In this document: piece after piece, positions 30,001-36,000 of the stretch
How positions within the stretch are numbered: the stretch's first letter is position 1
Layout: every line of letters begins with the position of its first letter
Source of the DNA: an uncultured candidate division WWE3 bacterium
GTDB lineage: Bacteria; Patescibacteriota; WWE3; UBA101185; UBA10185
Assembly: GCA_903879985.1 (NCBI GenBank)
Contig: CAIRNR010000007.1
Span: 346,880-410,879, forward strand
DNA: 64,000 nt
Direction of reading: 5' to 3'
Made by a program: the position numbers

Positions 30001-33000
30001 GCAAAATCATACGCTGACTGCCAATATGCAGTAACTCATGTTAAGTGTAACAATGGACAGGCCTGTATGACCAACCCTGCAGCATCTTTTTGTGTTTGTA
30101 TGGGCGGATCCACAGAAATAATAGAGAAACCGGAAGGCCAAGCTGGCGTTTGTGTTATTCACGACAAAAAATATGATGAATGGGATTACTTTAGAAACGC
30201 ACAAGACGGAACTGCAAAGGCGCTATAAAATCCCTCTAACACTGCTATAGGTTTGATTAGTCGTGATTAACTTGGTATACTCCACATTAATAATCATCAA
30301 GTCTTAACTATAAAGGGAGAGTTGCAATGCGAATAGTGACTTTAGGTAACTTAACACCAAATATTTTAGTGCGTGCAATGGTGCCTTGTGAAGCAAAAAC
30401 GATAAACGGAAACGTGTTTCGTTTGGATAGCGGCCTTCTGGGGACAGCCTACGTTTTTCTCGGAGAAACAAACAATAGAAGATTCATGTTATTTCGTGAA
30501 GGTGAAACCGGGAAAATTTTCAAGGTAAAAATCGATCACGCACCCAAATTTGCACCTGTGCTTTACGATAGCGTTAAAACGGTGAAGATCCTGGACGATT
30601 CGACTAAGGTATCACTTGCGCAGCTCAGTGGTGATCCCCATAAGTATTACTATCATTGGCTTACAGGCAAACTGGGCAACAAAGCACCTGAAACGCAACC
30701 CGAAAATTAAGAAACTTCGGCAATGCTTAAGCATCCCTATGGAATCAAAACCATACGGATGCTTATTTTTTTGCTACAAGTTGACGCTAAGGCAAGTTAT
30801 ATGTACACTAGCGCCTAAATCTGAAAAAAAGGAGATAGTTAATGGCAGAAAAAAAACTGCAAGACCTCGCTGAGCGAAAAGCCCAAATAGACAGCGCTCC
30901 AGCTTTTGTTCAAGGTGACCATGTCTGTGTGTCCTTAAGGCCGGACAAAAAACGCGATTTGGACCAAGAGTTTCTTGAAGCAGAAATAACTTTTGGAGAT
31001 AGCGCGCGCGAAGGCCAAATTGCCAGGGCTAGAGCGTACACAGTAAGATCTCTCGAGAACAACGAAGCTCGCGGGATTAAAAAGGGAGATTTGCTTAAGT
31101 TCGTTAAAATTGATCAATTGCTACATCTGTAGTCCACAAACGCCAGACGACTACACAAAAGCCACTTTTATTTTTATTAAAGGTGGCTTATTTTTTACCA
31201 AAACAATAAGGTTCTAAACCATTCCTGACCTGACTGGCGCATTATATATAAATACTTAGCGCCATCAGTAGTTGAAATTACTTCCATACGATTTCCCAAA
31301 GTAGCCGCACCATTACCATAAGGTATCGTACTTCCTCCATTTACCACTAGCTTATTTACGTTTAAAGCATAAATTCTAGGATTAGTAGCCAATGCTGCAG
31401 TGAAATATAGCGTGTCATAACCATCGTAAGCAAACATAGCGCCTGTAGTTAATACTTCGGTTTGTGGAGTGATAAATACAGTATAATCCCACATTGTAGT
31501 AGTTACGTCATATCTATCAAATGCGTTGGAACCACCACCTCTACTACACCATAAATATCTTCCATTCTTTGTAGTATCACTTCCACCATAAATCCACGAT
31601 AATGAAATACCAGCACCTTTTGGTGGAACACCTAAAATTGTAAAGGTTGTATCCGTTCCAGCTGCTGTGCCGAATACACCAGAAATAGTTAAGGTATTAT
31701 TGGTATTTCCAGTTATTAGTCCTTCTTGACCAGTGCCTGCCCCCGACGTTAAACGTACACGTTTACCTGACCATTGGTTAGCCGTCCAATTTTTCGTGGA
31801 ATCAGTTAATGTTGCATTTGTAGTGTTAGTTGCACCTGTGAGCAATCCAAAGGTATCCATTAATATATATTTTGTTGTAGCATCCGGTGTAAATGATTGT
31901 GACGCATACGATAATGTATTAAATGTGTTTGAAGTAATAGTTATCTCACTTCCAACACCCGTACCTGCAATAATTCTAAATTTATAGCCAAGCCATTGAT
32001 TTGCATACCATGTTTTAGTGGTGTCTGCCAGAGATACATCCGAACCTCCTGTTGCATAACCATGCCCCTGAAGTGCCGGGGCTTTCCATTGTTCGTCTCG
32101 TCCAAATCCTTCGGGATCTTCTATGGTGTAACGAGATGTACCGTTTGAAGCCTGAGTAATATTAGATTGAAGAGTTAACGTTGTAGCAGTATTATCTGTG
32201 ATTCTTCTTAACTGCGAAGTAGGTGCTGTACCCGCAACATTTATTTCAACAATTCGTCCAATGTGTTCATGAGGCGTCCAAGTTTTACTAGCATCAACCA
32301 TGACACTTACTGACTGAGAATTTGAGGCTGCAGCATCAGCCGTTGCACTAATAACAATATCAAACGCGTTAATTGCATTCGTTGCCAATACAGTATAAGC
32401 AGTATTCCACGCGGCTTCAGTACAACCAGCAATTGTTATAGCATCCCCCATAGCAAAGTTGTGATTTTGAACCAAGGTAACACGCGCAACTACAGATGTA
32501 GTTATGATTTTAATGGTACAACCAGATCCAGAACCGGCTGACGTACCGATTCCTGTTCCAGTTGAATATCCGGAACCTGCTCTATAAATAGAAATCGCAG
32601 ATACAACTCCACCGGGAGTAACGTTATCCACACGTACGGCACCATTACTACCTACACTTACTGTTAATATATCTCCAACAACGTAGTTAGTTCCACCAAA
32701 AGTTGGTACAACATCTACTGAAGAAATACCACCAGTAGATCTGACCGCAGTGTTTATTGCATAAGGTTCTTGACCTCCATACTTACAACTCATGTTAATA
32801 GTTTGCCCATAGTCGTAATATGGGCCATTAGTCCAAACGTCTGGTTCTATTTGATATTGGAACATTGTGGAAGCGCCATTGCCGACCACGTACATTTTTT
32901 CTGTTTCGCCATATATAGAATAAGTCGTGGTGTTATTTGGGACTATGTCCCAATTACGTTCTATTGTGTAAGTTGTAGCATTATTTCCGACGATACGACG

Positions 33001-36000
33001 TCTTTGACCATCTCCGGTTCCGTCAGTCAGGCGTAATTGATACCCTGCCCATCTATCGATAGCCTTTGATTTTGAACTATCTATTAATGTACGAAGCGTA
33101 CCATCGGTTGACGATGCCCCAGTAAGAAACGTTCCTCCACGCTCTCCTATTGCCTCGAGAGAAAAGTCTGTACCCAAGGCAGCAGCTAACATGCCGCCTA
33201 AGGCTGTTTTTGTAACCCAGTTATCATTTAACACATCGTAATATTGTAATGAAGACCATGGTGCCGTAGCCACAGCAGAGAGCATCCAAATTGCTCCACT
33301 TTCAATTACGAAACTGGAAGTTGCATCAGGAAGGGTATCCCAAGTATCTACAGTTATATCCGAAGATTCAATATAGTAATGAGATTGCGCACCGGCCGTT
33401 GAGGCAGGTATGGCATAAGGAGCAACTGCTGAAAACGGATTATTATTCCAAGGCTCTAACTGTTGATAGTTTATATCGTAAAAATATAAAGTATTTGCAT
33501 CGTTATATAAAACTTTTCGTAGCTGAGATAAACCTGTACCAAATACAACGCGTACTTGATGCCCAATATGCTGATTAATTGTCCATTTTTTGGTGGTATC
33601 CTGAATTTGGTTTGCATTTGTTGTTGCAGTGGCAACTCCATGCTCCATAATTACTGCGTCGGCTGTAGAAAGTATTTGTCGCCTCTGCCCAGAACCTGCA
33701 CCTGCAGTAATTCTAATGTAATAATCGTTTAGTAAATCTTTGCGTAAGCCCGCTATTGTTAATGATGTAGATGTAGAACCCAAAACGTTTCCACGAAAAC
33801 CTTCATAAGTGGAGTACCTTAAACTTACTGTTGTAACTGCGGCGGTATTAGGTGATGCTAATTGTTGCCAACCATCCGCCCATGTATCGTATCTCCAAAA
33901 AGTACTGTTTAAATAATATAAATAACGATCGTTTCTTCCCTCACCACCACACATAGTGGATGTAGCTGATGCAGCCGCAGGAGCAAATCTCAACCATTCC
34001 CATGTTGGCAAATCAATTTGTTTTTTAAGGTTATAGGTAGATGCCATAATATATGTAGGTAGTTACTTATAATAGTCTACACTAAGGCTAAGTTCTAAGA
34101 CAACGGATTTTGGAATTACACGAAACTTTCTTCAAGTGCGATATAGCACGATAAAGACCCCATAGTTTACCCAAACACCACGATATAGTACAATACTAAA
34201 AATAATCACAAACCGATAGTCAAAAAAAGGAGACGAAAATGTTACTCGGACTTGGTATATATGTTGTCGCTGTTTACGTTTTAATCCTGGGACACGAGCT
34301 TGGACACTTTACAGCCTCAAGACTTTTAAAGGTAAGAATCAGCAAGTTTGGTATTGGTGCCATAAAAGTTTTAAGTTTCAAATATATTGGCACCACATTT
34401 GAATTTGGCATCCTGCCTGTGGTTGGATATGTAGAGCAAAATTCGAAAGATGTGAAGAATCTGCAGTTATACAAAAAACTGATCATCATCTTAGCTGGAC
34501 CTTTTGCTTCGGCCATAATGGGATTCATATTCCTGGTTTTTTCTGGGGTGGGAATTGAAGTTGCGGCAGTGACGAGCGCACAACTCCCCATAGCCATACC
34601 ATTTATGATCATGGCCAAACCTTCGATATTGCTCTTAACCAAAGACATGAACAATATCTCCGCCACCATGCACTTGGCCAATTTACTAGTTAGTTCCCCG
34701 GCACAGACATTGGGACTAATTGGGATAATCAGCCTGGGTGTCGCAGGGATTAATCTATTCCCGATACCTTTGCTTGATGGTGGCCAGGCACTTTTTGAAA
34801 TTTTAAAAGGACCGCTGGGAAAATACAAGGTCAAGCTGTGGGAAATTGGCAATGAAATAAGTATCCTATCAATGGTAAGAACTACGTTGATTGTGATATT
34901 TTTCCTGTATCTAATTTACACTCTTGTGGCCGAAATATATTTCAGGCTTGTCCAGACATGATGAAGGAATTTGGTACGTCAGAGCTTCTCAAGTTGTTAT
35001 TTGGGAGGCTCTTTTTTTGGGGTTGCCGAGCGTGCTATAGGTTGACCGAACAAGCGATTTAGGTTAAAATGACAGTATCAAATAGGAAAGATACCAAAAA
35101 GGAAAAGAGGAAGAGATGAAAAACAGAAACGAAGTGTTTTTGACTGTTGTTTTGGGTGTCATTTTTGTACTGTGCATTGCCTCGGCCTGCACAGCAACTG
35201 TAACGTTTACACCTACAGCCACAACAGCAACTCCGGCGCTGGAAAACCTGATGCCTGACCCAACGCGCGTGGCAGAGGATTTATTGAAAAAATGCCCAGA
35301 TATTTTCAGAACGGATCCAATGCTGGATCTTGACGATGATTGCACGAGCGATTTGGGTATATTTACAAATGGCGATATCTTAATGATGGCCGAAGCAGCA
35401 CGTCAAGCAAATATCGTCTACAAAATTTCTGAGGCCACATATAACTGCGATGGAAAAGTATGTGTAACGCAGGGCTTCAAAGATTTCAGAGTGCGTATGG
35501 GGTATGAAAGTGACTTTCGCATGAAGTTAAATTTGCTCATGGCAACGAAAGTCCAGTCAAAGTAACACAAAAGGCACCCTATGAAAAAACATAAGGTGCC
35601 TTTTCTCTTTTCACAAACAATAAAAATTACTTAACAAACGTTAAAACTGCAACCGCAGGAACAACACTAGAATCATTTCCCTCGTTAACTCGCCAAGTCA
35701 TAGAGCGTGTGGTTGTATCGTAAGACATTATCGCCTCGCCAGTACTTCCATTTAAAGTTTTATAGTGCATGTATGCTTCCCCATCGTGAATGAAACCAAC
35801 AATACCAACGCCAAGATCAAGTGAATAATCGTAAACACATTCTTGAGTATCAACGTTCAAGCTTTTTACACAATAACCTCCATAAACATAGGCTCCGTCG
35901 GTATTTAGCATTAACTCAAAATCTGATTGGGCCGGATCCGTGCGTTTCCATGTACCTTTGTAGGTATAAAAAATGTCATCTTTTAAATAGCGAGAAAATA

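Follow-up and report, generated by a model that had tools for sequence, protein, structure and literature searches.

The 64,000-nucleotide stretch of DNA analysed here (the window) carries an intact gene for a 950-amino-acid protein which, judged by sequence similarity, belongs to a very large, un-named family for which no domain model exists, and which large phages share with many Patescibacteria, where it is chromosomal. We favour, with reasonable though not high confidence, an explanation in which the gene is an intact, stand-alone member of this family, its product a predicted beta-propeller with inserted small beta-barrels, and the family a group of attachment proteins that act outside the cytoplasm. 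Fold analogies and gene context suggest attachment through ligand binding as the most likely role of the window protein; the ligand of the family is probably a glycan, by analogy, and the site of action would be the phage tail or the cell surface and its vicinity.

The gene and the sites flanking it are the following:

31195..34047, minus strand: complete gene for the 950-aa protein (ORF list and translation), with ATG start and stop codon included
34048..34238, no strand: divergent intergenic region of 191 bp between this gene and that of the M50 peptidase, presumably the promoter region (sequence read)
31159..31189, no strand: hairpin with a 12-bp stem between convergent gene ends, possibly a bidirectional terminator (scan for terminator-like sites)

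The ORF list and translation confirmed the reading frame given in a preliminary description of this DNA, and since the open frame (31198-34062) extends just five codons upstream of the ATG, there is no hidden N-terminal extension. Because the genes on both flanks are on the opposite strand, the propeller gene is monocistronic; the divergent orientation relative to an M50 protease gene, as described earlier, was found again (M50 peptidase, 34239-34961, plus strand). On reading, no obvious Shine-Dalgarno sequence was seen in the intergenic region, where the sole consensus promoter-like site is on the plus strand and the site count does not exceed shuffle expectation; terminator-like sites are likewise no more numerous here than expected from shuffles. 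The composition (T 13.7%, G 10.3%, A 9.6%, S 7.9%, N 6.0%) agrees with the earlier characterization as Gly/Thr/Ser/Asn-rich. With a maximum Kyte-Doolittle(19) hydropathy of 1.33, and 0.33 at the N-terminus, the protein has no transmembrane helix or Sec-type signal, so that this part of the preliminary description holds, whereas the label 'cytoplasmic' itself is unproven. The N-terminus (MASTYNLKKQIDLPTWEWLRFAP...) contains neither an RR/KR-x-F-L motif nor a hydrophobic stretch, and hence no Tat signal of its own, and it is part of the fold in the AF2 model.

The window copy is intact, maintained and conserved like its relatives. An identical 950-aa protein is encoded on 17 contigs (up to 715 kb), and gene copies that are identical or differ by one nucleotide come from several samples, with the gene context unchanged. 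The closest available sequence (P0121) differs by a single nucleotide, and the next relatives, at 58% identity, are saturated in a dN/dS comparison. Of the positions that are at least 90% conserved in the family, 162 of 169 (95.9%) are retained, which places the window copy at rank 21 of 42, the family median. Codon composition matches that of the host, with a GC3 of 0.262 for the propeller gene and 0.298 +/- 0.06 for the remaining window genes.

An AF2 model obtained from 42 homologues (pLDDT 89.8, pTM 0.88) is all-beta. The core is predicted to be a six-bladed Kelch-type beta-propeller, closed and composed of four-stranded blades in the model, to which N-terminal, middle and C-terminal segments of the chain contribute. 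The insertions between blades are predicted to form six small beta-barrels and about two other beta domains. The six copies of the sequence repeat (W-x2-N-Q-W ... G-x-G-x-G-Q ... N-T-x-x-T-L) would each be such a barrel, of the type found in EF-Tu domain 2 and at tailspike N-termini. With blade and barrel boundaries read from the predicted model, the order of elements from the N- to the C-terminus is:

33751..33957, minus strand: putative N-terminal propeller segment, residues ~31-99 (YLYYL..FWRYD..W)
33598..33756, minus strand: repeat 1, residues 98-150, degenerate and without the W-x2-N-Q-W lead-in; cross-profile i-E 3e-8 to 9e-3
33433..33606, minus strand: repeat 2, residues 148-205 (TTKKWTINQHIGHQVRVVFGTGLSQLRKVLYND...); cross-profile i-E 1e-11 to 9e-5
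33082..33381, minus strand: putative middle propeller segment, residues ~223-322 (IWMLS..LQYYDV..W)
32902..33075, minus strand: repeat 3, residues 325-382; cross-profile i-E 6e-13 to 8e-6
32779..32898, minus strand: putative middle propeller segment, residues ~384-423 (MYVVGNG..FQYQI..W)
32299..32763, minus strand: about two all-beta domains between blades, residues ~429-583 (AF2 pLDDT 90-96)
32110..32298, minus strand: repeat 4, residues 584-646; cross-profile matches
31852..32028, minus strand: repeat 5, residues 674-732
31624..31806, minus strand: repeat 6, residues 748-808
31198..31602, minus strand: putative three contiguous C-terminal blades, residues ~816-950 (YLWCSRGGG..FDRYD..W, LYFTA, YLYIMR)

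The earlier count of at least six repeats proved right: profiles of single repeat positions across orthologues find the other copies at 13-63 bits, whereas 500 shuffles gave no more than 8.9 bits. All five peptides quoted in the preliminary description were recovered (residues 587-627, 751-790, 677-715, 105-128 and 333-364); repeat 2 is absent from the copies quoted there. The repeat 3 unit consists of four strands (AF2 DSSP), and repeat 4 lies within a sub-model of residues 580-812 with a pLDDT of 88.3. The most confident part of the AF2 model is formed by residues ~429-583, for which searches of the protein against Pfam and PHROG gave no family match. Since similarity between blade-to-blade sequence profiles was not significant, the propeller is seen in the predicted structure only. 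At E<=1 the window protein matches no Pfam family, Kelch included, and a precomputed match to PF01344 (Kelch_1) exists for 11 of the 120 best homologues, described as 'faint' where it was graded.

The claim that the repeat is novel stands, as no existing domain model matches: the window protein has no Pfam, PHROG or PDB-sequence match. Comparison of the family profile to the PDB gave nothing usable, and matches to DsbG and isochorismatase (E 0.04-0.3) were dismissed as chance. No solved structure was found in which six small beta-barrels are nested in a Kelch propeller. The protein is not an isolated oddity. Homologues number 272, and the best 120 are 939-1036 aa long and 43-58% identical, with nearly all covering 99-100% of the query; the window protein shares the conserved length of ~940-970 aa. 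The number of cluster representatives is 425 at E<=1e-30 and 2211 at E<=1e-10, a relative is encoded on 327 IMG/VR viral contigs, and 80 IMG/VR proteins match the window protein at 40-52% identity. Among homologues of known context, the best-scoring ones belong to phage or phage-like contigs (L035, 58% identity; L034, 54%). In a star-like neighbour-joining tree phage and cellular copies are interleaved, and that of the window clusters with phage-like ones.

Phage members of the family are encoded in tail and baseplate modules. In one locus (L040) the homologue is flanked by Gp5_OB/collar/collagen genes on one side and by gp25/gp6/wedge/gp8 baseplate genes on the other, in another (L039) it is close to a sheath gene, and the contig of L035 also carries RNR, Thy1, HNH and VanY genes. 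Among the genes adjoining the phage copies there are matches to tail-fibre and tail-assembly PHROGs, and the N-terminus of a small adaptor protein encoded next to the propeller protein matches phrog_5838, 'virion structural protein'. In cyanophage Pam2, gp66 lies among tail genes, and both gp65 and gp66 are marked as detected by mass spectrometry in purified virions (PMC9382816 Table S2). In phages, the family is a virion component of the tail-fibre/baseplate module, encoded after an adaptor of ~190 aa whose N-terminus resembles virion-attachment domains. The GenBank label of Pam2 gp66, 'flagellar hook-length control protein FliK', goes back to a BLAST match to a Parcubacteria protein, whose name was copied. 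An identity as FliK was rejected for the window protein, which has no FliK-type Pfam domain, nor a Pfam match of any kind, and no flagellar genes were identified among the window ORFs scanned. The label is a mis-annotation that is spreading, and the present work corrects it.

The adaptor has a conserved C-terminal domain (...RQ(R/K)V.V(E/D)...ARNAYANGIR.NL.FS) and accompanies the propeller gene in 29 of 31 genome loci, 71 of 80 viral loci, all seven phage-like metagenome loci and Pam2. A twin-arginine signal, scored as (K/R)R-x-F-L-K followed by a hydrophobic region and A-x-A, is present on 24 of the 29 cellular adaptors, as compared to none of 71 viral and none of eight phage-like adaptors. 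Similarly, tatC occurs in 21 of the 31 genome loci versus none of the 80 viral loci, in most cases with tatA directly downstream. The gene order in Patescibacteria is adaptor, propeller, lysin-like gene, tatC-tatA; one rearranged cluster (tatC-tatA-adaptor-propeller) is found beside recA and wzy genes. The flanks of the Tat-linked clusters are cellular (LigA, GatA, histidine kinase, PEP synthase). Within these clusters the propeller and the lysin-like protein lack a signal, and it is the small adaptor that carries the twin-arginine signal. In many Patescibacteria, then, the adaptor-propeller(-lysin-like) module known from phages is chromosomal, with a twin-arginine signal peptide in place of the N-terminal domain of the adaptor. 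The presence of the lysin-like gene and tatC-tatA in the cluster points to Tat hitch-hiking as the export route, by which the folded, signal-less propeller would be carried out on the adaptor. Tat genes are present in Patescibacteria, and no substrate was named in the literature search (PMC9166423). The Tn-seq study of Southlakia epibionticum was considered as a lead and dropped, as the essential dockerin protein SEML1_0315 adjoins neither TatC nor the propeller family; the term 'TatC' is absent from the supplements of that study.

In a comparison of more than 100 loci, that of the window stands out as the exception. A search of the six-frame translation of the 64-kb window with the adaptor HMM gave nothing (best E 0.2), a difference in gene context and not in the protein, and tatC, tatA, lysin-like genes and paralogues were likewise absent from it (HMMs and regular expressions on six-frame translations), as were the neighbours of related loci (tblastn). 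A 192-aa antisense ORF just upstream (34274-34852, minus strand), of the size of a phage adaptor, was considered as a hidden adaptor and rejected, since it has no adaptor similarity and the plus strand carries a solid M50 peptidase gene. Ten unannotated window ORFs, including the flanking ones, have no PHROG match. The neighbours of the propeller gene are the M50 peptidase, MutL/MutS, PAS proteins and a DUF333 protein, and other scanned neighbours have cellular Pfam domains. The window is cellular (Suf, aaRS, DnaG, RpoD and MutSL genes), neither a phage genome nor a prophage structural module surrounds the gene, and the earlier observation that no phage genes are nearby was borne out by the window scans; the sole tyrosine recombinase lies ~27 kb away. 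The attribution of the window to Patescibacteria is based on the taxonomic labels of MAGs in which homologues occur. The window copy is thus an orphan, without an adaptor, Tat or phage gene within 64 kb, and because its locus is exceptional the export route proposed for the relatives cannot be assumed for it. It may use in trans an adaptor/Tat system whose genes lie in another part of the genome.

Several other explanations deserve consideration. The gene could have remained from a decayed prophage or have been captured recently from a phage, in either case functionless for the cell and still undegraded. The phage context of the best-scoring homologues and the tree position fit such an origin, as do the monocistronic arrangement between opposite-strand genes and the fact that this is the only type of locus examined that lacks the near-universal adaptor gene. 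We nevertheless consider a relic unlikely, since the frame is intact over 950 codons, retention of conserved positions equals the family median, GC3 agrees with that of host genes, copies in the same context recur in several samples, and no integrase, att-like feature or phage gene adjoins the gene. Less likely still is a cytoplasmic protein that counters phages with a homologous tail protein, for example a decoy subunit that poisons tail assembly, or another intracellular Kelch scaffold. Kelch propellers serve generically as platforms for protein interaction, the window protein lacks a signal peptide, a transmembrane helix and a nearby export partner, and its identity to phage proteins from similar environments is 50-58%, but there are no defence-type neighbours, and all other cellular loci tie the family to an export system and not to defence genes.

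The preliminary description saw in the pattern a resemblance to beta-helix or phage tail-fibre-like architectures. The second comparison is supported by full-length homologues that are virion or tail-module proteins. The first is not: a novel cytoplasmic repeat protein of beta-helix type, or a structural part of a cellular apparatus unrelated to phages, could account for the Gly/Thr/Ser/Asn-rich, all-beta, internally repeated chain and for the lack of domain-model matches, but it is disfavoured and very improbable, as the AF2 model has a six-bladed propeller with small barrels and no solenoid of stacked three-strand coils as in a parallel beta-helix. The earlier proposal of an adhesin secreted by a non-classical route is reasonable, in view of relatives encoded beside a Tat-signal-bearing partner and tatC/tatA, and the preliminary interpretation as a whole is partly supported.

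A life attached to host cells is assumed for Patescibacteria, and to our knowledge few of their attachment factors are known. It can be envisaged that these episymbionts domesticated a phage tail-fibre module, consisting of adaptor, Kelch/beta-barrel receptor-binding protein and lysin-like protein, and wired it to a dedicated TatC-TatA translocon for host attachment or penetration. The virion-attachment domain of the adaptor would have been swapped for a twin-arginine signal, the folded, signal-less binder would hitch-hike out, and the window gene would be a phage-proximal second paralogue acting in trans. Taken in full, this scenario is doubtful; its family-level part alone, a Tat-linked, exported, phage-derived module, has about an even chance of being correct. 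By itself, the window gene is of modest significance, as an orphan copy of a phage-tail-type protein. If the family does form an exported, phage-derived adhesin system, it would be a concrete candidate for host attachment by Patescibacteria, and an unusual, cofactor-free case of Tat hitch-hiking.

It is instructive to compare these proteins to known systems. The small and large subunits of hydrogenases are an example of Tat hitch-hiking. Another is E. coli PaoABC, for which ternary co-translocation is described (PMC4273604), and the arrangement of the Patescibacteria clusters matches its logic. One partner carries the signal and the folded cargo none, and in Patescibacteria TatC/TatA are encoded alongside; the differences are that the Patescibacteria module has no redox cofactor, that its cargo is phage-tail-like and that co-export is suggested by gene context. 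As far as the 64 kb shows, the model is not applicable to the window. To the small barrels of EF-Tu domain 2, E1 FCCH and the N-termini of tailspike depolymerase and GH110 alpha-galactosidase there is fold-level similarity only (9-16% identity), and the window protein differs in having six per chain, between propeller blades, with a motif of their own and no Pfam match. Compared to eukaryotic and bacterial six-bladed Kelch domains and propeller lectins (LZTR1, KLHDC10, KLHL12, Keap1; Ralstonia RSL), its blades are interrupted by ~690 inserted residues, and Kelch sequence similarity and BTB or other typical partner domains are missing. Pam2 gp66 (Pseudanabaena siphophage, UQS94946.1) belongs to the same propeller-plus-repeat family (37% identity over 85% of the query, E 2e-59), but has 875 aa and is encoded in a tail cluster, preceded by the adaptor gp65, whereas the window gene is chromosomal and stands alone. 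For the use of beta-propellers in phage adhesion, phi11 Gp45 offers a precedent, as its propeller reportedly binds a cell-wall glycan. Gp45 is described as a baseplate receptor-binding protein of Staphylococcus phage phi11 that contains a five-bladed propeller (PMC4901313).

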